DNA of 64,000 nt from Thermoplasmatota archaeon (GCA_038884455.1 JAWABU010000001.1:11263-75262), one strand, 5' to 3'. Positions 3,714 to 49,721 are shown, counted from the stretch's first letter. The notes: a model not told the origin generated them from the sequence alone. Made by a program: numbers and translations.

Positions 3714-6395
3714 TTACGGCCAGGGCACTGTATACCACTGATGTTTCCATAAGATCTGCAACGTCCAATCACCCGGCAGTGGAGTGTCACCAAGAATCCA
3801 AATACGAATCAATTGTCCATTCTGAGCATGCCATTGAATCGTCCGAGTAATATCAATAAAATTCTGACCACTCAGTCTGAATCCATACCAATAATTACCA
3901 CTCTGTGAAGGGTCAAAACCAGCCTCAAGGTTGAACTGATCACCAACCGGTTGACCAAACGTATGAATCGTCACATATCCAGTTTCCTGTAACGACCAGG
4001 TAAATTTTACCTTTCGATTTGCAAAAAACGAAACAGACCCCTGGAGTTTAAATCCTGGTGTTGTTGTGTTTACAAAAGTCACTGCAACATTTTTATTTAC
4101 CTGCAACTCCAGCATCCCTGATTCACCAATGTTCCATGTTGCGGCAATACTCAACAGATCACTATCAACATGTACCGAAATATCAACTGCATCTAAGGAA
4201 AGAATACGACCTGACCACTGCAAATTTCGAATCTGATTCCCAACCTTATCCCAAGAAATCATGAGATGATCACTGGTTTGTATCCCAAGACCAAACCTCA
4301 GCATCAGACTTCCTTGATCATGCACGGTAAGCGTAGTATACAGCAGCTGATCACCACCGGTAATCACCGAAAGAACACCATGATTGTTCTGCGCATCAGG
4401 AAGATCCCAGACAAGCTCAGTATGATTGTTTTTTAACTCCAACGTATTTGTAATTGTCCATCCTGCATGACTTACAGAAAACGTCACCGTTGGTTCGCCA
4501 CCAACTGCAGTACTCCGCATCATAGTAATATGACCTCTTCGATCAGATCGGTTGACATCCCATGCTATTTGAACAAACGTCGTACTCAGTTCAAGTGTTT
4601 TTGAAAACACCCAATCTTTGTACTGAATCGTTGTCGTAGAAAGCAATGACGCCTCAGGGCTACGTTCAAGAGTTATCATTCCCGTCCCCTGTAAAATCTT
4701 AATATCCCATGAAAGTTTTACAAATGCACATGCAAGAATAAACGTTTTTGTCACGGAAACCTCACCAAAACGCAACCCTACATCGAGCGTTCGCGGTTCA
4801 TCGTAATCCCGTACAATATGAATATATCCAGTTCCTCCTGCAACATCAATAAAACTGTCACATCGAATCATCTTTGGCACCTGCGTGATTCGCATAAACG
4901 GTTCATACACCCCAGAGAAATACAAACCAAGCTCTTCAACATCAGACGACATATTCAGTTCAGCGAAACTTTGTGCAGACAGATCACCAAGCACACCCAA
5001 TTCAAGACCCCATGCTGCATGAATGCGCTGTGGGAGATTACTGACTGCAAAACAAACAAGTGTACCATTTTGCTCTGAATCAAGGCTATAAGAGATGTCA
5101 TATGGCCGATCTGACTCATAGAGAAACTCTCGAGATCCAAGAATAGTTAAATCAAACTTCATGTAACTTGGCAACGGGTCGATCACAAATCGCTGAATAA
5201 TAGCATCAAGAATACCGCCCTCTGCACGAAATGAAATTCTTGTTGACACACCAGCGCTTTTGCCGAACTCATATGAAATGGTTGCCTGTGTAGGAACCGC
5301 GGTGATCGTAAGTTCAGTTGCAGGATCAAATTCAACAGAAAAACATCGAGAAAACACTTCATGACCCTCACCATCAACAGTCGTATACTGGGTAAAAAAC
5401 GTTACCTGGGAACCAGTCTCAAGAGAATCAGGTTGTATTATTAATCGAACAACCCGGGGATCATCAAGATGCTCTCGGCCGACAAAAAACGATGTCGTCA
5501 CCTTATTGATACCATCTCCAACCGCAGTGGATCGATACCCAATTTGCGTACTGAAAAAAGGATTATTCTTGGTATCAAGCTCACCACCGGAAAGAAGGAC
5601 AAACGGAAAACGAACCTCTAACGAAGCCTCATAATTTTTCGACGTATCACAGCTGGTTTCAAGATGAAATCTCGTTTCAATAACATTCTCAGAATTCTGT
5701 GTTATCTTTGTTCGGGTGAAACGCAGCTCAACAGCTGTATCATCTTTTGACTGCATACTTGTAAGAAAACGCTTCGTTTCACCAGTTGTAAGCATCGAGT
5801 TAAAATCAGCGATTCCGAGATTCAACGGTGTCCTAAGCGTCATACCATTATCATACCGAGTATTGATCCACACGCCAAAATCATCACGACCTATTTTGAC
5901 AAACAAGACTTTTATCAAATCGCGAGCACATTCTTGATCTTGATCATCAAAACCATACACCCGAATCGTATACAACCCAGATGAAAGCCCCAGATCCATT
6001 GAAAAACCATTAATAGTGTTATAATCCCATCGTTCAGTTTTCCACCCTGTTGCCATCTGCGTTGCCTCAAATCGTACATGATGCACATCGACTGATTCAG
6101 TGTCAATAGTAAGACTCCGACCGACAACCACAGCAAGACCAAGATGAAAGATATTCGGTAACTTCATCGGGCGAAGACGAAAAAGATACAACTGACCAGC
6201 GACAGGATATGTAATTACAAGTGATGACTGCAAACCTACGGTTGCAGATCGTTGAGATTGCACAACAATTGGTTGTTCTGGTTGATCAGAAAGCAATTCA
6301 TATTGAGTGAGATGAAAAACAGCAGCGCGATACGGCGTAGAAAACATCAAAAAAACCAAACAGAATAGTATTCCTCCTACTACCCTCTTTTTCAT
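3714..6395 (-). CDS. Large secreted hypothetical protein (893 aa) with N-terminal signal peptide.
   Basis: Long ORF on the same strand immediately upstream of the DUF2341 protein (43-nt gap). N-terminus MKKRVVGGILFCLVFLMFSTPYRAA is a typical signal peptide. No recognisable catalytic motifs. Confidence 0.75.
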   Translation of the reverse strand: MKKRVVGGILFCLVFLMFSTPYRAAVFHLTQYELLSDQPEQPIVVQSQRSATVGLQSSLVITYPVAGQLYLFRLRPMKLPNIFHLGLAVVVGRSLTIDTESVDVHHVRFEATQMATGWKTERWDYNTINGFSMDLGLSSGLYTIRVYGFDDQDQECARDLIKVLFVKIGRDDFGVWINTRYDNGMTLRTPLNLGIADFNSMLTTGETKRFLTSMQSKDDTAVELRFTRTKITQNSENVIETRFHLETSCDTSKNYEASLEVRFPFVLLSGGELDTKNNPFFSTQIGYRSTAVGDGINKVTTSFFVGREHLDDPRVVRLIIQPDSLETGSQVTFFTQYTTVDGEGHEVFSRCFSVEFDPATELTITAVPTQATISYEFGKSAGVSTRISFRAEGGILDAIIQRFVIDPLPSYMKFDLTILGSREFLYESDRPYDISYSLDSEQNGTLVCFAVSNLPQRIHAAWGLELGVLGDLSAQSFAELNMSSDVEELGLYFSGVYEPFMRITQVPKMIRCDSFIDVAGGTGYIHIVRDYDEPRTLDVGLRFGEVSVTKTFILACAFVKLSWDIKILQGTGMITLERSPEASLLSTTTIQYKDWVFSKTLELSTTFVQIAWDVNRSDRRGHITMMRSTAVGGEPTVTFSVSHAGWTITNTLELKNNHTELVWDLPDAQNNHGVLSVITGGDQLLYTTLTVHDQGSLMLRFGLGIQTSDHLMISWDKVGNQIRNLQWSGRILSLDAVDISVHVDSDLLSIAATWNIGESGMLELQVNKNVAVTFVNTTTPGFKLQGSVSFFANRKVKFTWSLQETGYVTIHTFGQPVGDQFNLEAGFDPSQSGNYWYGFRLSGQNFIDITRTIQWHAQNGQLIRIWILGDTPLPGDWTLQILWKHQWYTVPWP

Positions 6396-9820: not shown

Positions 9821-10008
9821 ATTTACGTCCAGGTTGCATATGCACCCATTACCAAACAACATCATCATTATTCTGGTAATGGAACGTTCATCGACACAAA
9901 CAACCACATGTCTAGACATGCGGCGGTCTCCGTTCTTATCAACTTATGTGCATTTCACACAAGCTGACGTTGAATTTCATGAGAGTATCTTTTTTAGGAA
10001 AATCGCAA

Positions 10009-15594: not shown

Positions 15595-16845
15595 CTATAT
15601 AAGCTTTCCGAAAAGGTTGATTTCTGACGAATCAATAATTTGCACTGAGACAAACTCCCCAAGGTGCACCTGCTCATGGAGAACAACAGGTTTGTACGTA
15701 TCAGTTCTGCCAAAAAACGTATTATTTTTTCCGAGTTCTGTAATTAGAACCGTATATTTTTTTCCATGAAATTTTTTATTTTTCGTTCGTTGAAGTTGTT
15801 TACAAAGCTCAGAAAGATATTGGGATCGCTGCTTGATAACCTTTGTTGGGATGCGACCAGACATTGTTTTTGCTGGAGTGTTCGGCCGCGCTGAAAAACG
15901 AGTGATATTCACAATATCTGGATTAATGTTCTTAAGAAATGTACACGTATGATGGAACTGATCATCGGTTTCTGTCGGGAATCCTACAATAACGTCGGTT
16001 GAAAGGCTGATATCAGGTATTTTTGCTCTGAACGTAGTTACCATTTCTCTGAACTCTTCAACGGTGTACTGGCGATTCATTTTTTGGAGTATCGTGTTGT
16101 CACCTGACTGAACTGGAAGATGGATAAATCGATACACATTTGGATGACGGTAACAGGCAAGAATATTACTGAATCTTTTTCTGACGGTGTACGGATTCAT
16201 CATACCAATTCTGATACGAAAACAATTCGGTTTCTGAGGTATTGTTCCGACTAATTCATCCAATGAGCTGTTCAAATCATACCCGTATGCAGCGGTATCT
16301 TGTGCCGTCAGTTGAATTTCGGTACATCCTTGACGAAGTGCTTCCTGTATGTATGCGATGATGTGTTGTTTTGGATAGCTGTGCAGAGATCCTCGCGCAA
16401 GACGTGTAATGCAGTACGAACATTTCTGAAGGCATCCCTCTGCAATCGTTATCGGTGCATATTGAGAAGTATAACGTGCTGGTAACCAAGAGGTATTGTT
16501 CTCTTGCGTAGTTGTTTTGTTTCCTGATACAATATCGACAATTGTACTCAACTCTGAAGGTTTAAGGAGGAACGCATCAGGGAGTATCTCTGTGATTAGT
16601 GCTTGCTGGACTGCGGACATACAACCAGTTACGATCACGGGTTTTTTGGTTTTTTTAAAAAATCTGAAACGAGATACCATTCGCTGTTCTGTTGTTCCAA
16701 TCACGGTACAGGTTACAATAATAAGGACATCTGCCTGGTGAATATCCTCAACAGGTTCATGATGATGACTGAGGAGTGCTCCCCTAATGAGGCTTTCGTC
16801 ACTTTTATTTGCAGTACAACCATAGGTTTCAATATACCATTTCAT
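15595..16845 (-). CDS. Radical-SAM methylthiotransferase, MiaB/MtaB family (tRNA t6A/i6A methylthiolation).
   Basis: 416 aa. N-terminal MTTase domain MKWYIETYGC. Radical SAM cysteine motif CxxxCxxC (EGCLQKCSYC). C-terminal TRAM-like region. Confidence 0.8.
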   Translation of the reverse strand: MKWYIETYGCTANKSDESLIRGALLSHHHEPVEDIHQADVLIIVTCTVIGTTEQRMVSRFRFFKKTKKPVIVTGCMSAVQQALITEILPDAFLLKPSELSTIVDIVSGNKTTTQENNTSWLPARYTSQYAPITIAEGCLQKCSYCITRLARGSLHSYPKQHIIAYIQEALRQGCTEIQLTAQDTAAYGYDLNSSLDELVGTIPQKPNCFRIRIGMMNPYTVRKRFSNILACYRHPNVYRFIHLPVQSGDNTILQKMNRQYTVEEFREMVTTFRAKIPDISLSTDVIVGFPTETDDQFHHTCTFLKNINPDIVNITRFSARPNTPAKTMSGRIPTKVIKQRSQYLSELCKQLQRTKNKKFHGKKYTVLITELGKNNTFFGRTDTYKPVVLHEQVHLGEFVSVQIIDSSEINLFGKLI

Positions 16846-16878: not shown

Positions 16879-18438
16879 TTATTTAAGTGCTTCTGTCACT
16901 CGTCGAAGAACAAATGTCTTATCAAGATTTGATAAAAAATATCCGAGTCGAGGTCCTTTTTCTTTGTTTAACAACAGTTGATAGAGTGTTTTAAAACAGA
17001 TTTGTACAGGAACGTGTACTTGTTCTGCGATTTCATAGATAGTATTGTGAATTGTTTCAGCAGTCCAGGGACTCTGTGAGAGTTTTTCTTCCAGCATCGT
17101 TAAATATTGACGCTGTTCAGATGTAAGAGAAATCGATGGAAGGTTTTCTTGAATCTCAAATTTAACTTCATCTGGTGCAAAGGTTTCAAGCCAATATCGT
17201 ACATGGTCGAGGCGCTGCTGCAAATGTTCCTCATCAGATTTTGAAATAGTGTTTGGTATTTGCTGTGTTCGGATCAATATTGCTTTTACCTCACTCCATG
17301 TTTTTCCAATTTGAAGAAGGGTTACAAGATGCCGATACGGAAGCTGCAGTGGCAGTTTTTTTGGAATATGATATGGTTGTGAAAGTTCATAGGTTTTCCT
17401 AAAATCTTTCATACCTTTATTTTCTTCGTACATCCCAAAATATGTTGCTTCTGCCTGGTCATATTCATCAACAAGAGAAAGTAAACCAAGCCCTGAGTCA
17501 AAAACAATATGTTTGTTAGGTTGATTTTTCATAATAAGAAAGCGCAACACCTCGGGTGGCGTCATCCGCAGCATTTCTTCGCTACTAAGTGCAGTTCCTT
17601 TTGAGCTATGCATTGCGCCTTTCCCTTTCAGCATGATAAATTCATAAACCTGGAGAGCAGGATGCGGATAGTTGAATATTTCTTCAACGATTTTCGCACC
17701 TGTTTCTCGTGCGCCTCCAACAGTTGCAAGATCTTTACCACAAGGTTCAAAGGTTACCCCAAGCATCTTCCACCGAGCAGGCCAGTCAATCCGCCAAGGT
17801 AGTTTTCCAACGCCACCGTCATTGATATTAATCTCACCTTGATAGCCGCATGAACAACTGTATTCAATGGTTGGATATTCATACAACACCGGTGAAGTCG
17901 TTGATATCTTTCCACAGTTTTGACATTTCACATTGAATGGAAGCCAATTTTTCGGCAGAACTCGTTTTGATATGGTTTCAAGAATTGTTCGAATTTTTTG
18001 TGTGTTTTCTAAAGCAATTTGTATTGACTCGATATAATCACCACGGCGGTACATGTCACTCGCACGGTAAACCTGTGGGTTTACACCGATTTCTTTCAGT
18101 GAACCAAGAAAAGACAGGAGAAAATGATCTGCATAACTTTGATGGCTGCCGCAGGGACATGGAAGTTCACAGATTGGTTTACCGACGTGTTCCTGATAAT
18201 TTTGTGGAAGGTAGGGATATACCTTTCTGAGAGGATCATAATCATCACACACATAGATAAAATCAGCATCTCCTCCTTTCTCAATTAAACATCGATATAC
18301 AGCATCAGTAGTTAGAATCTCACGCATGTTCCCAATGTGAATTGGGCCTGATGGTGTTATTCCTGTGGCGAGTACATGCTTTTTCTTTTGTTGATAGAGT
18401 TGTTCTGCTAAAACTTCTGCCCAATGCATCTGAACCAC
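16879..18438 (-). CDS. lysK: Lysyl-tRNA synthetase, class I (archaeal type).
   Basis: 519 aa. HIGN motif (PSGPIHIGNMRE) and the typical class I LysRS zinc-binding CxC...C region. Overall LysK-like layout. Confidence 0.85.
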   Translation of the reverse strand: MVQMHWAEVLAEQLYQQKKKHVLATGITPSGPIHIGNMREILTTDAVYRCLIEKGGDADFIYVCDDYDPLRKVYPYLPQNYQEHVGKPICELPCPCGSHQSYADHFLLSFLGSLKEIGVNPQVYRASDMYRRGDYIESIQIALENTQKIRTILETISKRVLPKNWLPFNVKCQNCGKISTTSPVLYEYPTIEYSCSCGYQGEININDGGVGKLPWRIDWPARWKMLGVTFEPCGKDLATVGGARETGAKIVEEIFNYPHPALQVYEFIMLKGKGAMHSSKGTALSSEEMLRMTPPEVLRFLIMKNQPNKHIVFDSGLGLLSLVDEYDQAEATYFGMYEENKGMKDFRKTYELSQPYHIPKKLPLQLPYRHLVTLLQIGKTWSEVKAILIRTQQIPNTISKSDEEHLQQRLDHVRYWLETFAPDEVKFEIQENLPSISLTSEQRQYLTMLEEKLSQSPWTAETIHNTIYEIAEQVHVPVQICFKTLYQLLLNKEKGPRLGYFLSNLDKTFVLRRVTEALK

Positions 18439-18468: not shown

Positions 18469-19050
18469 CTAAATTGCTCGTGCTCTGATTAATGCACGCA
18501 GAGGAACTCCCTGAACGTCGTTGTGTGATTTTTTGTTAATGATTGCAACACATAAAACTGGAGTTGCTTTTTCATTTTTCAATGCTTTTATTGCACGTTT
18601 AAAGGTTTCGCCACTCCCAACAACATCATCAATAATGACAACGTTCTTATCTTTCACGGTTGCATAGTTTGACGAAAAAGCTCCTGACTTGTCATGACTT
18701 GGTCTGAAGACTGCAAGTTCTAAACAGAGAGCATCTGCGATATATAATGCATATGGAATTCCATTGATCGCAATACCAACAATTGTATCAACTTGAAGGT
18801 TTTTCTTTTCAATTTCTTCAAGAATAATGTCAGTTAAAGCATCAGCGATCGATCGGATACGATTCGGATAGATTCCAATTGAACGCCATCCGATTTTAAC
18901 TTCACCTTCTGGTTTCTCCTTCTTCCCTCGAGCAAGAAGCCAAGTTGCCGTGTCTTTTGAAATATTGAGTTCTTCACCAATTTCATAATCTGATAATCCA
19001 CTCTCTTTATATTTAATTGCTTTTGCTATCAGAGTATCTATTTCTTTCAT
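18469..19050 (-). CDS. Phosphoribosyltransferase-domain transcriptional regulator (GfcR/PyrE-like: N-terminal HTH plus PRTase domain).
   Basis: Probable start at MKEIDTLIAKAIKYKESGLSDYEIGEEL... (HTH), ATG at 19050. PRTase motif VVIIDDVVGSGETF. The ORF-track start at 19131 is an unlikely upstream extension. Confidence 0.65.
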   Translation of the reverse strand: MKEIDTLIAKAIKYKESGLSDYEIGEELNISKDTATWLLARGKKEKPEGEVKIGWRSIGIYPNRIRSIADALTDIILEEIEKKNLQVDTIVGIAINGIPYALYIADALCLELAVFRPSHDKSGAFSSNYATVKDKNVVIIDDVVGSGETFKRAIKALKNEKATPVLCVAIINKKSHNDVQGVPLRALIRARAI

Positions 19051-42678: not shown

Positions 42679-43185
42679 ATGAAAGCAAATAGAAAATTTA
42701 TAGATGGTGAGGAAGCAGTATCTGCGGTTATTGGTGTTATCCTCATGGTAGCAATTACCGTCGCCATAGCCGCAACCGTCTACGTCTACGTCAGCGGAAT
42801 GATGGACGTCAGTGGTGGATCTGCACCAGTTGCAGTCATCAACATCAACGATGGAGTAGCCACAGCAAGTTCTACAACAGGAACGTACAGTGCCAACGAT
42901 GAAGTATTTGTATTATTCCATTATAGTGGTGACACCATTCCAATGGCAGATGTCGTAATTGAATATATGGGTGGAGCTGTCACTTCATGGGATACACTCA
43001 TTGGATCAACAACAACCGGTGGACTAACTGCTGCCGCTCCAGCAGATGGTTTCTTCCAATTTGGTGATGAAATCGTTGTTAAAGCAGTTGATGCTAACAC
43101 CCAAGCAGGTGTGTATACTTTCCGCATCCGTCATAACCCAACAAGTTCATGGGTCATGCCAGCGAAAACCGCAACTGCTGTTTAA
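42679..43185 (+). CDS. Archaeal type IV pilin (class III signal peptide, PilA/DUF1628-like).
   Basis: MKANRKFIDGEEAVSAVIGVILMVAITVAIAATVYVYVSG resembles my recollection of the conserved haloarchaeal PilA hydrophobic domain GVSPVIGVILMVAITV (from memory, not searched). 168 aa. Confidence 0.8.
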   Translation: MKANRKFIDGEEAVSAVIGVILMVAITVAIAATVYVYVSGMMDVSGGSAPVAVININDGVATASSTTGTYSANDEVFVLFHYSGDTIPMADVVIEYMGGAVTSWDTLIGSTTTGGLTAAAPADGFFQFGDEIVVKAVDANTQAGVYTFRIRHNPTSSWVMPAKTATAV

Positions 43186-43302
43186 ACACCATACTAACCA
43201 CAATCTCAACTCTTTTTCTTCCTTTTTTCTCTAAAATCTTTTTAGAGTCTAAAACAAAATACAAAATCAATGAATCAAAAAAAATATGGGGATGGGGTAT
43301 AC

Positions 43303-43797
43303 ATGAAAAAACCATGCAAAAAAAAACTTAATCAAGAAGCAGTATCTGCAGTCATCGGTGTCACTATCATGGTTGCAATTACTGTCGCCATGGCTGCAGT
43401 AGCATATACCTATCTTACCGGTATGATTGGAGGCGAAACACCAACCCCAGTTGCATCGTTTAATATCAAAGATGGAACCGCAAATGCAAATGCTATGACT
43501 AATCTTTATAATGCTAATGATCAAGTTTTTATCATCGAACATTACAGCGGAGATACCATCACAACTAGTGAAATAACCATAGAATATAAAAGCCCAACAG
43601 GTACTTGGCAAACCCTCACCAGCACAGGACAAGCAGCTGGACTCAAAGCAACTATTCCCGCACATTTACAATTCGGCGATACTATCTCAGTAACCGCTGT
43701 CGATGCTAACACCAGAAATGGTGTGTATTTATTTCGCATCCGTCACAATCCCTCAGAAACATATCTGTTGCCTCAGATAGAAGCAACCGCTATATAA
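43303..43797 (+). CDS. Archaeal type IV pilin, tandem paralogue.
   Basis: Start MKKPCKKKLNQEAVSAVIGVTIMVAITVAMAAVAYTYLTG. C-terminal region parallels the upstream pilin (YSGDTI..., FRIRHNP...). Confidence 0.8.
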   Translation: MKKPCKKKLNQEAVSAVIGVTIMVAITVAMAAVAYTYLTGMIGGETPTPVASFNIKDGTANANAMTNLYNANDQVFIIEHYSGDTITTSEITIEYKSPTGTWQTLTSTGQAAGLKATIPAHLQFGDTISVTAVDANTRNGVYLFRIRHNPSETYLLPQIEATAI

Positions 43798-43834
43798 CAC
43801 AACATTCTCCATTTTTTGTGATTCTTGTACATTT

Positions 43835-43920
43835 CACAATGTCACCTAAAATAACCGTTTTTACCCGCATGAATCGTTTTTTTTTCGTATCCCTCCTTGT
43901 CAACGTATTACGTTTATCGT
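43835..43920 (+). repeat. Copy 1 of an ~60-80 bp intergenic direct repeat (core TTTCACAATGTCACCTAAAATAACCGTTTTTACCCGCATGAATCGTTTTTTTTT).
   Basis: Shares GTCACCTAAAA, AACC.TTTT and CATGAATC.TTTTTT blocks with copies at 45481-45580 and 47208-47265, all in the same orientation. Confidence 0.5.
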
Positions 43921-44062
43921 ATCTTTGGGAGTTTTTGTTCGGTTCGTTTCGTTCCATTTGGTTGTTGTCGTCGTTTCATGATTTTTTGTGAACGGGGAAG
44001 GCAGAGGCGAGGATGGAGTTATGGGCGAAACGATAAAAGAATTCTATATGAACCTGAGAGTA

Positions 44063-45325
44063 CTACGAAAAACCAAGCAGCCATTTCCACACAGGAAGAA
44101 CCTGTATCGTTTTATTCGCTACATGAATTTCTTCCTCCTGCTCTTTTGTAAGAAGCAAACCTTCTTTCAAATGAAACATTTCCATAGCTTCAAGTAAACC
44201 AGCGACCTCGCGTTCCTTATCACCTTCATCCAGAACATAACAAACCTGGATCGCCTCACAAATCCGCGTGTCTTCTTTAACCAGGAAATCACATTCGTGA
44301 TGATTTGTAAAATAATACACATCTTTTTTCTGTCGTTTCAACTCAAGGAACACCAGATTTTCTAAAACCTGCCCTTTATCCGAGGAAAACGTTGTTCCAA
44401 AAACATAATGAAACGCGGGATCAACCGTGTAGATTTTTTTTGGGGCGTTGAGTTGCTTTTTAAGAGAATAATCAAAACGCTGCACCTCAAAAAACAGATA
44501 CGAGTTGCACAGATATGAGATATACTCTTTAACTGTAATCGAATTCGATAGCTGTAATGTTTTTTTCAAGGAGTTGTAAGTGAAAGGAGAAGCAATCGTT
44601 GTCATTAAAATATTGACAAGTTCTTTCAAGGTTTTCTGCCGTTTAATCATATATCGGGCAATGATATCTCGATAGAGAATGTTATTATAGAGTGTGTGAA
44701 GATATTCCTTATCCCTGGTTTTCAGATATTCCGGTATTCCACCGTGAATCATATACTCATCAAACAACCGAATCAAATGAACTTTTTTTTCTGTTAGATA
44801 CAACCAGTCTTTTTGTGGTACACTTTTTTTGAATCGAAGAAATTCTCTAAACGAAAACGGATACACTTCAAATGCTTTATACCGTCCAGTTAACCGTGTG
44901 CCAAACTCCTTGCTCAACAGCGAGGCATTGGATCCAGTGATGATTATTTTTTTCCCTTGATCATGAAGTCGCCGAACAAATGTTTCAAATTTATCGATAT
45001 TTTGAATTTCATCAAAAAAATAGAATTTAGGAGATGGATACACCTCAAGAAGGATTTCATGCAGTTGTTCAAAATCTTTAGCGTTGAACTCAAGAAACCG
45101 TTCATCATCAAAATTGACATAACACATATTCTTGTTCTGATGTATCAGTTGTTTCAAAAGTGTTGATTTACCGCTTCGTCGCAATCCCGTAAGTATAAGA
45201 ATTCTTGGATCCTTGAACCAGGATACGATGTCGTCTATATTTTCTCGAAGAACAGTTTCTCCAGGGAGAACACTATCATTTTTCTGCTGGATGACAACCT
45301 GACGAAAAACTTCCTTCGACATCAT
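44063..45325 (-). CDS. AAA+ ATPase of the COG1373 family (AAA_14 plus DUF4143).
   Basis: Walker A GLRRSGKST. Walker B FFDEIQ. 420 aa. C-terminal DUF4143-like region. Confidence 0.8.
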   Translation of the reverse strand: MMSKEVFRQVVIQQKNDSVLPGETVLRENIDDIVSWFKDPRILILTGLRRSGKSTLLKQLIHQNKNMCYVNFDDERFLEFNAKDFEQLHEILLEVYPSPKFYFFDEIQNIDKFETFVRRLHDQGKKIIITGSNASLLSKEFGTRLTGRYKAFEVYPFSFREFLRFKKSVPQKDWLYLTEKKVHLIRLFDEYMIHGGIPEYLKTRDKEYLHTLYNNILYRDIIARYMIKRQKTLKELVNILMTTIASPFTYNSLKKTLQLSNSITVKEYISYLCNSYLFFEVQRFDYSLKKQLNAPKKIYTVDPAFHYVFGTTFSSDKGQVLENLVFLELKRQKKDVYYFTNHHECDFLVKEDTRICEAIQVCYVLDEGDKEREVAGLLEAMEMFHLKEGLLLTKEQEEEIHVANKTIQVLPVWKWLLGFS

Positions 45326-45480
45326 ACTAAATGGTAGTTAGTATTAACATATAAATGTTTTCATTACCAATTAGCACAATGCAACATACTGAACGTGGCA
45401 GCGGCCTTGGCGAACAATCGTTTTCAGAAACAACCGACATTCTTTACCGTCTGTACGATGATCAAATCCGTAGTCTCATG

Positions 45481-45580
45481 GGTGACTCCTCAACCTTCCA
45501 AACCGTCATCTAAACACGATTTTTTCCACATGAATCATTTTTTCTATGTTACCTTACGCCAACGTACTCCTTTTATGCCA
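45481..45580 (+). repeat. Copy 2 of the intergenic direct repeat (GGTGACTCC...TTCCAAACCGTCATCTAAACACGATTTTTTCCACATGAATCATTTTTTCTATG...).
   Basis: Lies in the divergent intergenic region between the two COG1373 genes. Aligns with copies 1 and 3. Confidence 0.5.
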
Positions 45581-45791
45581 GTATTGGTGTTTTATTCGGT
45601 TCGTCTTGCAGAGTTGATTGATCTCGTTATTTGTGGTTTTTATGATTTTTTGAGCGGGATAGTAGCGTAGGATGAAAAATAAGGTACAGAAAAGATGGTA
45701 ATGACGCAGGTATTCTAGGACAAATGCATAAAAATGGTTAATATATCGATTACAATCGAAAGATTTATAATTTTCATTCGATTACGTTAGA

Positions 45792-47078
45792 GTGATGAAA
45801 GAAATCTTATTTGACTGGAATCCATGGTGGGCAGAATCATATACCTTCCAAAAAGTAAAAAGGGAACTCTTCCAACGCATCAAACCATGGATTGAGAGAA
45901 AAGAAATCATTGCACTCCTCGGGGTTAGGCGAAGTGGAAAAACAACCGAACTTTTTGAGATTATTGACCACCTCATTCATGAACAACATATCAACAGAGA
46001 CAATATCTGCTTCATAAAAGCAGATGACGATCGTGTGGAAAAAAAAGAGTTAATTCAAAAAGCATTAGACGAATACATCACCTGGAAAAATCCGAAAGGT
46101 AGAATCTTTCTATTTATCGATGAAATACAAGAAATACCTGAATGGCAAAAAACACTTAAAAGAATATACGATCTTGAACAAGAAAACAAAAAGATTTTCA
46201 TTTCAGGATCCAACGCCTCGTTATTGAAAGAAGAACTCAGTTATCTCCTTACGGGGAGATTCGCTTATTTTGAATTGTATCCCTTTAGTTTTAAGGAGTT
46301 CCTCCTGGCTCATAATATCAAGATACAAAATGAAATGGATTTGATACAGCAGAAAAATACGATTAGGAATCTTCTCCTCGCCTATATCGAATACGGAGGT
46401 TTTCCTGAAATAACTCTTGAAAGAGATAAAGAAAAGAAAGAAGAATTGTTACGCTTTTACTTTGAATCAATCCTCTATAGAGATGTCGTAAAAAGAAAAA
46501 ATATTAGAAATGTCGAAAAACTCGACCGACTGGTAAGATGGCATTTGCAAAATACATCTGCCTATGCAAACTATGAGAAACTTGGCAAGTATTGCGAACT
46601 ATCAACAGATACGACAGGAGAATACACGCGATATCTTGAAGACGCCTATCTCATTTTTGTTGTAAATATTTTTGCTTATTCGCTAAAGAAACAATTCGTT
46701 AATCCGAAGAAAGTGTATTGTATCGATCCTGGTATACGAAAAATCGTCGGATTCATCTTTTCTCAGGATAGCGGAAAAATGTATGAGAATATAGTGTTTA
46801 TACATCTCCGACGGACCGGAAAACAAATTTTCTATTGGAGCGAGAAACACGAATGTGATTTTATCATCCAAAATAAAATGAACATCGAAGAAGTGATTCA
46901 GGTTTCATCTGATCTTCAAGAAAACAAAGAACGGGAAGTGAACGGTTTACTCGAAGCCATGAAACATCTCAACGTTCTAAAAGGAAGTATCATTACGAAA
47001 GATTACGAATCGAAAGAAATCATCGATGAAAAAGAAATTCGATTTATCCCTCTCTGGAAGTGGCTCCTTCTTCGTTGA
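45792..47078 (+). CDS. AAA+ ATPase of the COG1373 family, divergent paralogue.
   Basis: Walker A GVRRSGKTT. Walker B FIDEIQ. 428 aa. Same architecture as the minus-strand paralogue. Confidence 0.8.
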   Translation: MMKEILFDWNPWWAESYTFQKVKRELFQRIKPWIERKEIIALLGVRRSGKTTELFEIIDHLIHEQHINRDNICFIKADDDRVEKKELIQKALDEYITWKNPKGRIFLFIDEIQEIPEWQKTLKRIYDLEQENKKIFISGSNASLLKEELSYLLTGRFAYFELYPFSFKEFLLAHNIKIQNEMDLIQQKNTIRNLLLAYIEYGGFPEITLERDKEKKEELLRFYFESILYRDVVKRKNIRNVEKLDRLVRWHLQNTSAYANYEKLGKYCELSTDTTGEYTRYLEDAYLIFVVNIFAYSLKKQFVNPKKVYCIDPGIRKIVGFIFSQDSGKMYENIVFIHLRRTGKQIFYWSEKHECDFIIQNKMNIEEVIQVSSDLQENKEREVNGLLEAMKHLNVLKGSIITKDYESKEIIDEKEIRFIPLWKWLLLR

Positions 47079-47207
47079 TCTTTTTTTGTTTCTATATACG
47101 ACTGCAATCATGGAGACGAAGTACTTTTCAGGACCAGCTAGAGTAGTGTACCAACTCTAGGCATATCGACTGATCTTGTAGATTTCATTCCAAGAGCAAA
47201 CATGATG

Positions 47208-47265
47208 GTGACGTCACTTTCCAAAACGTCACCTAAAAAACCATTTTATCCGAATATTACCACAC
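47208..47265 (+). repeat. Copy 3 of the intergenic direct repeat, preceded by a perfect GTGACGTCAC palindrome.
   Basis: GTGACGTCACTTTCCAAAACGTCACCTAAAAAACCATTTTATCCGAATATT aligns with copies 1 and 2. Confidence 0.5.
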
Positions 47266-47357
47266 AACAAACCCCGTTATTCCTTGTGAATCTCACCGAA
47301 AAAAAACACAGTATTCGAGAGAAAACCATATATCTACGGTAGCAATACTCTCTATAG

Positions 47358-47783
47358 ATGGATACAGAAAGGCGTGATCGATACAAGGATAAGCTTGAAC
47401 TCATTGAAAAAAGACTCCAAGAAATAGAAGAGTGGACAAACATATCCTCGCAAGAGTTTATCTCAGATGAAAAAACGAAACTCGCAACATATAAAGCGTT
47501 TCAAGAACTAGCAGAATCCTGTATGGATATCGTTGCAATGGCATGTAAAGATTTAAAAATTCTGCCGAAAGATGATTACACCAATGTCGAAAAACTTAGT
47601 CAAAAACTGAACATCAATAAACGAATGCTCCAAGAAATAAACGGACTTAGAAATAGGTTGATTCATCGATACAACAGCACTGATGATACCGTAGCTTTTG
47701 AGAGTATCCACGAGCTAATGATAGAAATCAATACATTTATAGACGTGATTAAACGATGGATAAAAAAATCATTAAAAAAATAA
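47358..47783 (+). CDS. hepT: HEPN-domain toxin, HepT/DUF86 family.
   Basis: Rx4HxY motif (RNRLIHRY) near the C-terminus. 141 aa. Confidence 0.75.
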   Translation: MDTERRDRYKDKLELIEKRLQEIEEWTNISSQEFISDEKTKLATYKAFQELAESCMDIVAMACKDLKILPKDDYTNVEKLSQKLNINKRMLQEINGLRNRLIHRYNSTDDTVAFESIHELMIEINTFIDVIKRWIKKSLKK

Positions 47784-48130
47784 AAAACGATTTCTCACCA
47801 TTCCACAATAGAGTATTGGGCATAGTACTCTATGGCTCACACCAGAAAAGAACTCAGACAGCTCGGAGCGACATCGATATCTGTATTATAGCCCCCGGTG
47901 AAAATCACAAAAGACTGTTTAAAGAGATGCTTCCCCTCAACTATGACATTAAGATTTTTGAAACAATGCCGCTCTTTCTAAAAATACAAGTTATTCACCA
48001 TCATAAGATACTGTATACAAAAGATCGATATGCACTCTACGAGTATTTCTATATTTTTAGAAAACTCTGGAATGATCAAAAAGAAAGACAGCGTCTCACT
48101 AAAAAAGAAGCACTCTACCTCTTTAGTTAA
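47756..48130 (+). CDS. mntA: Minimal nucleotidyltransferase (MNT) antitoxin partner of HepT.
   Basis: GSx10DxD motif (LYGSHQKRTQTARSDIDICII). 124 aa. 28-nt overlap with hepT. Confidence 0.75.
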   Translation: MDKKIIKKIKNDFSPFHNRVLGIVLYGSHQKRTQTARSDIDICIIAPGENHKRLFKEMLPLNYDIKIFETMPLFLKIQVIHHHKILYTKDRYALYEYFYIFRKLWNDQKERQRLTKKEALYLFS

Positions 48131-48177: not shown

Positions 48178-48711
48178 CTATATATATTTTAATTCTTTGA
48201 GTTTTTTTATGACGTTCTGAGTGCTTTCGTCAATTGTTTCTTTATCAGAATAAAGAATCAAATCAGGATGTTTCGGTTCTTCGTAGACATCATCAACTCC
48301 AGTAAAATCTTTAAGTTCACCAGTACGTGCTTTCTTATACATCCCTTTTACATCTCGTTGTATACAAACCTCAAGAGGGCATTTAACATAAATTTCAACA
48401 AAAGAACCAAGAATACGTCGAGCATACTCGCGATGTGTTTGATACGGAGAAACAAAGCTTGCTACCACAATAACCCCATGCCGCGTTAACAGTTTTGCAA
48501 CAAAAGTAACTCGTCGTATATTCTCATCTCGGTCCTTTTTTGAAAAACCAAGATCACTGCAGAGCTCCTTTCGAACGTTATCCCCGTCGAGAACCTCAAC
48601 TGCATAACCATCTCCTCTCAATATATCAGCAACACGATGTGCAATTGTAGTTTTACCAGAACACGGTAAACCAGTAAACCATACTGTAAACCCTCGTTGA
48701 TTTTCCCTCAT
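48178..48711 (-). CDS. cysC: Adenylylsulfate (APS) kinase.
   Basis: MRENQRGFTVWFTGLPCSGKTTIA P-loop and LDGDNVR motif. 177 aa. Confidence 0.85.
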   Translation of the reverse strand: MRENQRGFTVWFTGLPCSGKTTIAHRVADILRGDGYAVEVLDGDNVRKELCSDLGFSKKDRDENIRRVTFVAKLLTRHGVIVVASFVSPYQTHREYARRILGSFVEIYVKCPLEVCIQRDVKGMYKKARTGELKDFTGVDDVYEEPKHPDLILYSDKETIDESTQNVIKKLKELKYI

Positions 48712-49721
48712 CGGTTAACCTCACAACCAGTATCAGTTAAAAAATCTATAATTTTTTCAACAAAAAGATGAGTTTTTTCCTTGGGAACAATAGCACCAAG
48801 TACCTCTGCCTTCCCACCGGTTTTAAAACCATACTTCTTTCCAAGTTGAATTAACGGTTCAACATTCTTATGACTCCGAACATAAATCTGATCCATATCT
48901 TTAAAAAAACCGGTATTAATAACAAGTGTGTTTTTCCCAGATTGCCATGCAATTTTCCGGGTGATCGTTGAAATAATATTATACGTCGTATCAATTTTTT
49001 TAACCACGACGTCTTTAATTATCTCCTGGGGTTGACGAAGACACAATGAAATTTCTTCGTCGAGTTTGATGAGGTTTTTTTTCCATTGTGAATTCTGAAG
49101 AATCATATCACCATTGGTATAATCTAATAAGCGGCGGGGCGCTTCCTCGACTTGTTTCTTATCGCCGATCTTATAACACGAATCAAGTAAATACACCATT
49201 CGAAGCATCGTATCAAAAGAGATACCATACAAGGAACAATACTGCTCAATACGTGGGTACATTGCGTTATTACCCAGAATTTTCTGTTCATGATCACCGA
49301 CAACACCAAGTAACGCCCATAACGTAACCTCCTGTTTCAGAAACTCATTCACAATCCAGCTTGTAGATGGATATAGATCAGGATTTTTACCACGACTAAT
49401 CGGGTTATAATGGTGAACCGCAGGAATGATGTTTTGAAGATGATGATCAAAAATAAATATTTGTGGAATGGTTTTCGACAAACGAAGAATGTTTTCCTCA
49501 GGGAGAGCCATATCAACTATGATAAGAAAATCATACTTCGAATAGCAAGTCAATTCAGCCTCCGTAAGAAAATAATTTCCCAACTCTGGAGTAACATTGG
49601 TAATGGTTTTATCATGTAAAAATTCTAATATCAGACGTGCTGAACAAATGCCATCGGTATCCCAATGATGGAGTAAAAGCCCCTCCCCCAAAAGATGAAT
49701 CAAATCCTTTTTTTCACACAT
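48708..49721 (-). CDS. DHH-family phosphoesterase (NrnA-like; candidate 3-prime-phosphoadenosine 5-prime-phosphate phosphatase).
   Basis: DHH motifs (HHWDTDGICSA, DHH). DHHA1-like C-terminal half. Embedded in the sulfate-activation operon. Confidence 0.7.
   Translation of the reverse strand: MCEKKDLIHLLGEGLLLHHWDTDGICSARLILEFLHDKTITNVTPELGNYFLTEAELTCYSKYDFLIIVDMALPEENILRLSKTIPQIFIFDHHLQNIIPAVHHYNPISRGKNPDLYPSTSWIVNEFLKQEVTLWALLGVVGDHEQKILGNNAMYPRIEQYCSLYGISFDTMLRMVYLLDSCYKIGDKKQVEEAPRRLLDYTNGDMILQNSQWKKNLIKLDEEISLCLRQPQEIIKDVVVKKIDTTYNIISTITRKIAWQSGKNTLVINTGFFKDMDQIYVRSHKNVEPLIQLGKKYGFKTGGKAEVLGAIVPKEKTHLFVEKIIDFLTDTGCEVNR

Follow-up and report, generated by a model that had tools for sequence, protein, structure and literature searches.

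How does a chromosome come to hold two divergent genes of one ATPase family, each set between direct copies of the same non-coding repeat? The question is raised by a variable hotspot on a Thermoplasmatota chromosome, located in a stretch of 64,000 nucleotides (the window) in which the array reads R1, A(-), R2, A(+), R3, HepT-MNT, with R denoting the repeat and A(-) and A(+) the ATPase genes on the two strands. A preliminary description, made from the sequence alone, had reported three same-orientation copies of the repeat bracketing one COG1373 ATPase gene per interval, with the two genes in opposite directions. Both observations are borne out, and they can be used as a starting point for asking how the array was built.

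The array and its repeats

The features of the locus, with coordinates in the window, are as follows.

42679-43185 and 43270-43797, plus strand: two archaeal type IV pilin genes (Pfam Pilin_N), left border
43815-44012, plus strand: R1, long copy, from profile and pairwise alignment (to 44013 by nhmmer)
43818-43822 and 43841-43845: arms of R1 equivalent to the R3 inverted repeat
43982-43999, minus strand: degenerate downstream copy of the S element, 18 nt, overlapping the 3' end of R1
44063-45325, minus strand: ATPase A(-), 420 aa, AAA_14 and DUF4143 (Pfam E=2e-38 and 2.5e-20; PDC-S01 E=1.1e-118)
45376-45436, minus strand: S element, a second junction repeat of about 45 nt, TCTGAAAACGATTGTTCGCCAAGGCCGCTGCCACGTTCAG (nhmmer E=2.8e-18)
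45476-45682, plus strand: R2, long copy, between the divergent A(-) and A(+) (profile 45477-45681)
45480-45486 and 45505-45511: equivalent arms of R2
45746-45770, plus strand: A(+) promoter block, palindrome TCGATTACAATCGA followed by TTTATAA, from eight aligned orthologous upstream regions
45795-47078, plus strand: ATPase A(+), 427 aa, AAA_14 and DUF4143 (Pfam; PDC-S01 E=3.1e-110)
47203-47255, plus strand: R3, short copy, found with the R1 and R2 profile (shared part about 47206-47254)
47207-47233, plus strand: inverted repeat GGTGACGT-N11-ACGTCACC at the start of R3, read from the sequence
47358-47783, plus strand: HepT (Pfam), of a toxin-antitoxin pair forming the third cassette, with R3 upstream
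47756-48130, plus strand: MNT (Pfam), toxin-antitoxin partner of HepT
48178-48711, minus strand: APS kinase (Pfam), conserved right border
48708-49721, minus strand: DHH phosphoesterase (Pfam), conserved right border

The border genes recur at related loci: the pilin left border is also present in L021, L113 and L114, while APS kinase and DHH lie beside cassettes in L108, as does DHH in L021. Within the array, R1 starts 18 nt past the stop codon of the second pilin gene and stops 50 nt short of the stop codon of A(-), while R3 lies 125 nt past the A(+) stop codon and about 100 nt ahead of the HepT start codon. Alignment of 43818-43986 with 45482-45641 gives 110 of 169 identical positions (65%) for R1 and R2, whose similarity, extended by a profile, covers about 170-200 nt. 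R3 consists of only the first 36-50 nt of R, at ~81% identity. The length of ~60-80 bp first given to all three copies is too short for the long copies and too long for R3, and of the sequence blocks described as common to them, the CCNCATGAATCNTTTTTT block is confined to R1 and R2. The similarity itself is significant. R1 and R2 align with a score of 41 against 11.5 +/- 1.4 (maximum 16) in 300 dinucleotide shuffles, and the R2-R3 (29/36 identical) and R1-R3 (27/33) alignments also score above all 300 shuffles. A profile made from R1 and R2 alone recovers R3 at E=0.003 and no further copy in the 64 kb. Start-to-start spacing is 1664 and 1723 nt. A CRISPR array, with repeats of about 25-40 nt and spacers of about 30-40 nt, was rejected on these gene-bearing intervals, as it had been before.

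R is also restricted in its distribution. All three copies are present in L113, an independent assembly of the same species (98.8% identical), and a search of 805 kb of related loci, of a kind that the preliminary description had proposed, returned copies there and in L108 but in no other locus. In L108, a partial orthologue of R2 (4581-4648, E=1.8e-7) occupies the same position relative to the A(-) orthologue, and the first ~70 nt of R are kept at ~75% identity, a level like that of coding DNA. This conservation could reflect a function of R rather than simple decay. The R core pattern gave no more than chance matches in IMG/VR and in the GTDB representatives, a set that excludes this genome; the within-genome search covered the 64-kb window. 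Rfam 15 gave no match to R at gathering score, and in 43700-47450 at E<=1 gave one chance miRNA match inside A(-). R is real beyond chance and, within the sequence searched, specific to this locus.

Every copy of R opens with a hairpin-like inverted repeat, GGTGAY-N(11-18)-GTCAYC (predicted hairpin, 3/3). The perfect palindrome GTGACGTCAC, earlier placed ahead of the third copy, does exist (47208-47217), but it lies inside the R3 inverted repeat as part of the 5' arm, and so belongs to an element shared by all copies. Folding energies relative to shuffled sequence are z +0.3 and +0.6 for R1, +0.3 and 0.0 for R2, and -1.1 to +1.2 for the S copies; taken with a repeat from locus L036, R and S fold no better than shuffles (z -0.4 to +1.2 for most).

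The A(-) start codon is preceded, at a distance of 50-110 nt, by the S element, with ends reading CTGAAAAC...GTTCAG only, such that the terminal ..AAC / GTT.. are inverted. The degenerate downstream copy of S (43999-43982) matches L108 6157-6174 at 100% (BLAST), which is the end of the downstream S copy of L108, where two S copies flank A(-). In L114, three S copies (45 nt) bracket an MNT-HEPN cassette and the A(-) cassette.

The ATPases and the same locus in relatives

Each R interval holds one AAA_14+DUF4143 gene, and the two proteins are 39% identical. The AAA_14 P-loop domain scores 131.6 and 116.5 bits (Pfam gathering cut-off 27) and the C-terminal DUF4143 domain, of the PD-(D/E)XK clan, 73.3 and 81.5 bits (cut-off 28.1). 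Both proteins match the PADLOC PDC-S01 models over their full length. PDC-S01 is a PADLOC phage-defence candidate defined by genomic association, and the literature searched on it (COG1373) described no activity, mechanism or mobility. Residues 325-427, the confident part of the structural model, match Hjc resolvases and EcoT38I (Foldseek, probability 0.97-0.99), and a nuclease motif, E..ExDF..QV[ATSC]..RE, is found family-wide with the canonical lysine absent. Each gene is predicted to encode an AAA+ ATPase carrying an Hjc-like domain of the PD-(D/E)XK type, in a candidate defence family.

The HepT/MNT pair that had been noted beside the island is confirmed by Pfam, and together with the PDC-S01 matches it supports the view of the island as a probable accessory or defence region. 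The same association can be seen elsewhere, as the window HepT is 70% identical to a HepT of L024 that adjoins another AAA_14+DUF4143 ATPase. Pfam searches of the large ORFs in the 64-kb window returned no integrase, transposase or prophage domain, and neither a tyrosine recombinase or IntI nor a larger integrated element was found within it. There is no tRNA near the locus; those of the window are at 466, 10009 and 12728, the nearest 30 kb off.

Comparison with relatives, also proposed in the preliminary description, finds the ATPases singly. A(+) is identical to P0001 (an NCBI MAG protein, annotated 'Candidatus Thermoplasmatota archaeon') and has orthologues of 72-79% identity in L021 (78%), L024, L026 and L028-L030; A(-) has orthologues in L114 (92%) and L108 (80%). 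L021 has the order pilin-pilin-A(+)-toxin-antitoxin-DHH without A(-), L114 has pilin-pilin-A(-)-toxin-antitoxin without A(+) or R, and L108 has APS kinase-R2'-S-A(-)-S without A(+), R2' being the partial R2 orthologue. On sequence comparison, A(-) and A(+) are shown to be cassettes independent of each other, because the corresponding locus in relatives holds only one of them, and the gene content of the locus is likewise shown to turn over between relatives. The extent of the unit can also be read from the orthologues. In the case of A(+), conservation begins at the promoter palindrome and stops at the stop codon, with R2 outside, and the repeats thus lie outside the gene unit. An own conserved promoter but no R accompanies the A(+) orthologues in all of the six loci above and A(-) in L114. 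Between the window and L114, the block of S, promoter and A(-) is 92.5% identical with sharp ends, whereas the pilin genes beside it align only over the N-terminal ~50 residues; the A(-) cassette looks to have moved recently. No empty site, the single copy between aligned flanks by which insertion with long target duplication is defined, could be aligned at the nucleotide level, the junctions of L021, L114 and L108 being too diverged from R.

Flanking repeats across the ATPase family

After removal of near-identical proteins, flanking direct repeats were found at 19 of 64 AAA_14+DUF4143 genes against 3 of 88 controls, genes outside the family but comparable in size and taken from the same loci (Fisher p=7e-6). 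The family is strongly enriched in flanking, locus-specific direct repeats, the sequence being different at every locus, although ~70% of its genes have no detectable flanking repeat; inverted repeats showed no enrichment. The spacing follows one pattern: 56-250 nt separate the end of the upstream copy from the ATG, 14-80 nt separate the stop codon from the downstream copy, and the repeat period is 1.42-1.6 kb. For instance, a 79-nt direct repeat (86% identity) lies on either side of the A(+) orthologue of L021. L036 has three family ATPases, lying in both orientations, and a HicAB pair, set apart by six copies of a repeat of 87-140 nt. Elsewhere, one of the copies forms part of a host gene or a tRNA. 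In L026, L029 and L115-L122, the ATPase has tRNA-Lys on its upstream side, and a 21-nt copy of the tRNA 3' end follows the ATPase and one further ORF. In L042, both copies correspond to a convergent radical-SAM gene, of which the downstream one is the true 3' end and the upstream one a fragment. Those repeat-flanked genes that were checked had no integrase or transposase domain beside them. The recurrence of this layout, one gene between two repeats, around this family in many unrelated microbes suggests that these candidate defence genes move as single-gene cassettes.

Origin of the array and comparison with known systems

We lean towards reading R1, R2 and R3 as junction repeats from a small array of independently acquired gene cassettes, in the hotspot that the pilin genes bound on one side and the sulfate-assimilation and DHH genes on the other. 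An ATPase cassette would consist of its own promoter and one gene, and would enter either with duplication of adjacent local sequence or via recombination at that sequence, such that direct copies come to lie on both sides of the gene. A further insertion, into one of these copies, would then give three. Subsequent decay of the copies could account for the identities of 65-81% and for the truncated R3, and copies that are still similar may offer homology for the loss or exchange of cassettes. Target duplication at insertion as the source of the window repeats, the order of events and the inserting enzyme are all matters that we infer. R3 keeps the 5' end of R and not the insert-adjacent end, so that a one-step target duplication around A(+) needs a later deletion.

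Other origins can be set against these data. An integron-like CALIN array, in which R, S and the L036 repeat are recombination sites and a recombinase encoded elsewhere moves circular cassettes, is unlikely in our view. The layout of single-gene and toxin-antitoxin cassettes in either orientation, with array-specific direct repeats, is that of sedentary integrons, Archaea do have integrons and CALINs, with many toxin-antitoxin and restriction functions among their cassettes (PMC9668308), and S has inverted terminal ..AAC / GTT... However, the 64-kb window holds no tyrosine recombinase, R (about 200 nt) is longer and S (45 nt) shorter than the attC range of 57-141 nt, and both are without RYYYAAC and GTTRRRY boxes. 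The three repeats also fold no better than shuffles, the cassettes have promoters of their own, and the repeat is elsewhere a piece of a tRNA or host gene, unlike attC sites. It is similarly possible, at a level that we rate as quite improbable, that the putative ATPase-nuclease is itself the mobility enzyme of a one-gene element, making staggered breaks or strand invasions whose repair leaves long target duplications of variable length. The repeat enrichment is specific to this family, the inserted unit is only promoter and ATPase gene, no other mobility gene is nearby, the fold of the C-terminal domain resembles that of resolvases or restriction enzymes (PMC3424549), and COG1373 is among the genes common to several genera in a mobilome survey (PMC10782964). 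Yet toxin-antitoxin cassettes without such a protein are bracketed by the same repeats, the canonical nuclease lysine is missing, and most family members have no flanking repeats.

We give just as little credence to R being a cis element, whether a shared terminator or insulator or, as the preliminary description had put it, a shared operator for a regulator recognising a GTCAC core, here a dimeric GTGAC/GTCAC one. R1, R2, R3 and the L108 copy all retain the GGTGAY...GTCAYC inverted repeat and TTYCAAAAYGTCAC, several T-runs occur on the plus strand of R, and a separate element, S, is found 50-110 nt ahead of the start codons of three cassettes. Against this, orthologues of both ATPases keep a conserved promoter without R, and the placement of R varies: R1 lies beyond the 3' end of A(-), antisense to it, R2 precedes both genes on their 5' sides and R3 follows A(+) on the 3' side. 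The hairpin is also without covariation, an Rfam match or a folding energy better than shuffles, and the operator is not upheld. Local segmental duplication followed by inversion, another of the original proposals, is scarcely credible as the source of both ATPase genes and the flank copies. It would fit two genes of the same family in opposite orientation with repeats between them, but the proteins share 39% identity against 65-81% for the non-coding repeats, orthologues of 78-92% identity occur in genomes without the other gene, and the repeats are all direct though the genes are mutually inverted.

The reading as independently acquired cassettes can be extended further. PDC-S01 genes could be the core of an undescribed class of minimal mobile cassettes in Archaea and Bacteria, which would need no conventional transposase or integrase to insert, would leave behind long direct repeats peculiar to each locus and would accumulate with toxin-antitoxin modules in integron-like arrays, driven by the ATPase-nuclease itself or by an undescribed recombination system acting on non-attC repeats. 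We put this forward as a rather unlikely generalization.

Among known systems, integrons and CALINs, including those of Archaea (Ghaly et al. 2022, PMC9668308), are alike in their mostly single-gene and toxin-antitoxin cassettes, array-specific repeats and accessory or defence content; they differ from the present arrays in attC length, boxes and fold, in IntI, absent here from 64 kb, and in that our cassettes have their own promoters and, at other loci, repeats from host genes or tRNA. Integrative elements at tRNA 3' ends, such as tyrosine-integrase islands, offer a second comparison. A tRNA paired with a copy of its 3' end on the far side of the insert is the classical attL/attR signature, and an A(+) orthologue lies between an intact tRNA-Lys and the 21-nt copy in the ten loci described above. 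Unlike such islands, what is inserted amounts to only some 2 kb (the ATPase and a 160-aa ORF) with no integrase, and the window locus has no tRNA. Of the explanations first offered, att-like remnants nevertheless come nearest to the evidence, in that the repeats are family-wide and locus-specific and one is a tRNA 3' end; no larger element or integrase was found in the window.

The nearest precedent is the insertion with long target duplication documented in bacteria, where the cargo is a restriction-modification system or a solitary restriction gene (Nobusato et al. 2000; Furuta, Abe & Kobayashi 2010, PMC2853133); Furuta et al. report no archaeal case left after their screen. The arrays described here differ in that their hosts include Archaea, that several cassettes, including toxin-antitoxin pairs, are arrayed on the same repeat, and that the cargo is a single AAA_14+DUF4143 protein with no methyltransferase. 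In both cases, a nuclease-type defence unit without transposase or integrase is flanked by direct repeats of >30 bp, here R1/R2 of about 170-200 nt at A(-) and R2/R3 of 36-50 nt at A(+). In both, the repeats are long, imperfect, variable in length and site-specific in sequence, in many cases extend over the 3' end of an adjacent gene or over a tRNA, and are significantly commoner than around average genes. As the cargo is not restriction-modification, the window may record an event of that kind in which other genes were the cargo.

The locus and its repeats

The window is an archaeal chromosomal segment: housekeeping genes are found all along it, and it has a complete archaeal rRNA operon (5S, 23S, tRNA-Ala and 16S at 6.7-11.7 kb). 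One of its two ATPases, A(+), and its DHH protein are identical to proteins from an NCBI MAG annotated 'Candidatus Thermoplasmatota archaeon'; the other, A(-), has no exact protein on record when read from its first ATG and was recovered by homologue search. The gene order outlined below is the same in an independent assembly of the species (L113, GCA_038740275.1), which is 98.8% identical across 13.7 kb with the arrangement unchanged, so it is not an assembly artefact. The preliminary description had called the island consistent with an accessory or defence region; its GC content (0.35-0.38 across 44-48 kb) is low, yet inside the range of the rest of the window. No large ORF of the 64-kb window carries an integrase or transposase domain.

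Features of the locus (window coordinates)
42679-43185: pilin 1
43270-43797: pilin 2, followed by R1
43815-44012: repeat copy R1
44063-45325, minus strand: ATPase A(-), between R1 and R2
45355-45513, plus strand: ORF of 52 aa, beginning within the A(-) promoter region and ending in the R2 hairpin
45376-45436, minus strand: second junction repeat, S (about 45 nt, TCTGAAAACGATTGTTCACCAAGGCCGCTGCCGCGTTCGG), upstream of A(-)
45476-45682: repeat copy R2
45746-45770: promoter block of A(+)
45795-47078: ATPase A(+), between R2 and R3
47203-47255: short repeat copy R3
47358-48130: HepT-MNT pair, after R3
After HepT-MNT, minus strand: APS kinase and DHH genes

The three-copy repeat R is real, with corrections to its extent. 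The 60-80 bp originally proposed is too short for R1 and R2: 43818-43986 aligns with 45482-45641 at 110 of 169 identical positions (score 41 against 11.5 +/- 1.4, maximum 16, in 300 dinucleotide shuffles), and a profile lengthens both copies to about 200 nt. R3 has only the first 36-50 nt of R, identical to R2 at 29/36 positions and to R1 at 27/33, with both scores above all shuffles, and is recovered at E=0.003 by a profile made without it. Profile searching found no further copy in the 64 kb. Every copy opens with the inverted repeat GGTGAY...GTCAYC, and the palindrome GTGACGTCAC (47208-47217), which had been placed ahead of the third copy, is present but forms the 5' arm of this inverted repeat in R3. 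The block CCNCATGAATCNTTTTTT, thought to be common to all copies, occurs in R1 and R2 and is absent from R3.

Outside the species, R was absent from L114, L021 and all other related loci compared, apart from L108, where its first ~70 nt are found at the position they have in the window with respect to A(-) (E=1.8e-7). When R was tested as a possible dispersed repeat family, its core pattern TTYCAMANNGTCAYCTAAANNNNNNNTTT matched IMG/VR 3 times, always within the same viral coding region, and matched GTDB representatives, a set without the window's genome, 17 times, each a single bacterial hit; in all of these, similarity stops at the pattern.

Several other likenesses were considered. Translated, the left ends of the R copies read ..GDSSTFQTVI*, ..GDVTFQNVT* and ..CDSCTFHNVT*, and the ends of relatives' pilins ..GSYTIENV*, but alignment scores between the left end of R and pilin gene 3' ends do not exceed those of shuffles (p>=0.03 uncorrected), and a pilin C-terminus as the origin of that end is speculation. 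At its 3' end the APS kinase gene contains an 18-nt sequence (TTTTTATGACGTTCTGAG, 48204-48221) that is 83% like the 3' motif of R1 and R2, TTTNATGATTTTTTGNG, probably by chance. A 92-nt direct repeat of 74% identity (42712-42803 and 43336-43427) is accounted for by the signal and hydrophobic segment conserved at the N-termini of the tandem pilin paralogues. The 52-aa ORF, annotated as a gene in the source (P0361), is unlikely to be a real gene: a search of 1.84 billion representative proteins finds no homologue but itself, the third-position bias of its changes fits the frames of either strand equally, and what looks like conservation in L108 and L114 is due to the S repeat there.

Two independent cassettes and their arrays

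Both A(-) and A(+) combine AAA_14 with DUF4143 and match the PADLOC candidate PDC-S01 over their full length. A repeat-mediated duplication had been envisaged for them, an idea that fails on two counts: the two are 39% identical, and comparison with relatives, as had been recommended, finds one or the other at the corresponding locus. They are independent cassettes, and the locus turns over. For example, L021 reads pilin-pilin-A(+)-MNT/HEPN-DHH, with an A(+) orthologue 78% identical to that of the window; L114 reads pilin-pilin-A(-)-HEPN/MNT (92%), and L108 reads DHH-APS kinase-...-A(-) (80%). Orthologues of A(+) also occur in places unrelated to the window locus, beside tRNA-Lys in L026, L029 and L115-L122, and in L024 inside an island of AbiE, MNT and DUF6036 genes.

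Elements of related loci (coordinates of each locus)
L021, ~9953-9977: promoter block as in the window; also in L024, L026 and L028-L031
L114, 291-335, 1427-1471 and 2840-2884: S copies, spaced 1136 and 1413 nt
L108, 4699-4757 and 6121-6173: S copies on both sides of A(-)
L026, 9739-11851: tRNA-Lys insert
L029, 2759-4863: tRNA-Lys insert
L115-L122: tRNA-Lys inserts

The edges of the gene unit can be read from close A(+) orthologues, in which conservation starts at TCGATTAyAwTCGA and TTTATAA and runs to the stop codon; this puts the repeats immediately outside the unit. In the alignment, all A(+) orthologues have this palindrome and TTTATAA about 25-50 nt before the start codon, which looks like the gene's own putative operator and TATA box. 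A different sequence of about 16 nt, TATATGAACCTG(A/T)AGAG, directly follows the A(-) stop codon in opposite orientations in the window (44040-44062) and L114 (2793-2830); this could be a small terminator element that is palindromic or invertible.

The layout repeat / ATPase / repeat / ATPase / repeat / toxin-antitoxin is found again elsewhere with different repeat sequences. The three S copies of L114 bracket an MNT-HEPN cassette and an A(-) cassette. In the window a degenerate S copy overlaps the end of R1, so that A(-), having S on both sides, is doubly enclosed, by an S pair nested inside an R pair. R and S are not one family, as neither profile finds a copy of the other. Three S copies lie 50-110 nt upstream of start codons, which makes a promoter-proximal role for S possible. 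A GC-rich metagenome contig (L036, 1-5678) has the architecture of the window with an unrelated repeat, six copies of 87-140 nt set between three family ATPases, which occur in both orientations, and a HicA/HicB pair. On contigs ENA ERZ1426824, ERZ1426813 and ERZ1426812, a protein orthologous to A(-) at 93% (P0242) is listed between family ATPases of 429 and 430 aa, the three alternating in orientation, with a DUF433/DUF5615 pair adjoining in one contig and a Schlafen/AlbA_2 ATPase in another; by gene listing, these would be further cassette arrays.

The block of S, promoter and A(-) is 92.5% identical between the window and L114, with a sharp drop in identity at the stop codon on one side and at the outer edge of S on the other. 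The pilin genes next to it can be aligned only over their N-terminal ~50 residues. Together, these observations suggest that the A(-) cassette moved recently; fast pilin evolution is an alternative account of the contrast.

Flanking repeats across the gene family

The key finding is that flanking direct repeats are a property of the AAA_14+DUF4143 gene family. In all loci retrieved, the 500-600 nt upstream of each ORF of 330-520 aa was compared with an equal length downstream, and near-identical proteins were removed before counting. Direct repeats scoring >=31 flank 19/64 family genes and 3/88 other genes (Fisher p=7e-6), and those scoring >=50 flank 11/64 and 1/88, respectively; inverted repeats showed no enrichment around family genes in this comparison. 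One of the 3 above-threshold controls, lysyl-tRNA synthetase (16879-18438, minus strand), has a 32-34-nt imperfect match (16530-16563 and 18771-18802) that falls inside neighbouring coding regions. Repeat-positive members include distant, mostly bacterial ones (~30% identity), which sit among ordinary chromosomal genes (PspC, Por-tail protein, radical SAM, HlyD) with no integrase beside them. Placement follows a constant pattern, with the upstream copy ending 56-250 nt short of the ATG, the downstream copy beginning 14-80 nt past the stop codon, and a period of 1.42-1.6 kb.

The repeat sequences differ between loci. That of L021 (79 nt, 86% identity between copies, on both sides of the A(+) orthologue) is unrelated to R: TCTTGTACA and CCGTTTT are common to both, but the R profile has no significant match in L021. 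In L042, the true 3' end of a radical-SAM gene running convergently makes up the downstream copy, and the upstream copy is a fragment of it; the repeat there comes from duplicated host DNA and does not belong to the element. In L026 and L029 the ATPase lies downstream of an intact tRNA-Lys(CTT) and is followed by a 160-aa ORF and a 21-nt copy of the tRNA 3' end. The unannotated ORF of the tRNA-Lys inserts (134-160 aa) has no Pfam, PADLOC or NCBIfam match; these inserts of ~2 kb have an attL/attR-like signature without an integrase, and the 21-nt copy is decaying. Different in kind are the 8-nt tandem tracts (CACGAGGG or CACGACGG) on both sides of the family ATPase in L037 (1345-1600 and 3071-3320).

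DUF4143 belongs to the PD-(D/E)XK superfamily, with function unknown (PMC3424549). The ATPase has no PDB relatives by sequence, and its AlphaFold model is poor overall (pLDDT 58), the confident C-terminal alpha-beta-beta-beta-alpha-beta domain being the sole usable part. Foldseek matches the AAA+ part to ClpB, RFC, ORC and McrB, and the C-terminal part to Hjc resolvases and EcoT38I. The family-invariant motif E..ExDF..QV[ATSC]..RE (in A(+), within 331-381, E331-N332, E353-x-D355-F356, Q369-V370 and R380-E381, kept family-wide) lacks the lysine of a canonical (D/E)xK site. It may form a variant or an inactive active site, and predicted nuclease activity is plausible, though unproven.

Mechanism and precedents

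R1, R2 and R3 are most likely junction repeats left as cassettes were inserted one after another into a hotspot downstream of the pilin genes; the repeats would have decayed later, R3 becoming truncated. That R itself was once a single-copy target is inferred, as are the order of the insertions and the enzyme behind them. This insertion reading is weakest in that no empty site aligning with the window locus at the nucleotide level was obtained. A second weakness is the conservation of the R core in L108, which leaves room for R to have a function. A shared operator had been proposed, but orthologues keep their own promoters in the absence of R, so it is not a required one. As a non-coding RNA, R has no Rfam match and folds no better than shuffles; nor do single-strand folds of R, S or the L036 repeat exceed shuffles as attC-like structures.

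Among uncharacterised genes, those for COG1373/DUF4143 ATPases rank with the most abundant in the genomes of archaea and bacteria; to our knowledge, they are listed solely as a candidate defence family. The papers retrieved by full-text search for DUF4143 and COG1373 describe neither mobility nor repeats for them. Viewing them as repeat-flanked single-gene cassettes, often arrayed with toxin-antitoxin pairs and placed at host-gene or tRNA 3' ends, provides a testable handle on defence-gene spread and turnover. For annotation, such locus-specific repeats can be read as cassette junctions, rather than regulatory motifs, CRISPR-like arrays or assembly errors. If the ATPase drives its own insertion, it would represent a new type of mobile element.

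Compared with integrons, window-type arrays are integron-like in carrying toxin-antitoxin cassettes, but lack attC, and no IntI is present in the 64-kb window; their repeats differ from attC sites in length and have no R''/R' boxes. Among documented phenomena the nearest is insertion with long target duplication, known for bacterial restriction-modification and solitary restriction genes, units devoid of mobility genes (PMC2853133). Its flanking direct repeats are long, variable and imperfect, often overlap a neighbouring gene's 3' end or a tRNA, and are significantly enriched around those units; no archaeal case survived the authors' screen (PMC2853133). Here the cargo family is new and archaeal hosts are included, which would extend this still unexplained phenomenon from bacterial restriction-modification to another gene family and to Archaea.
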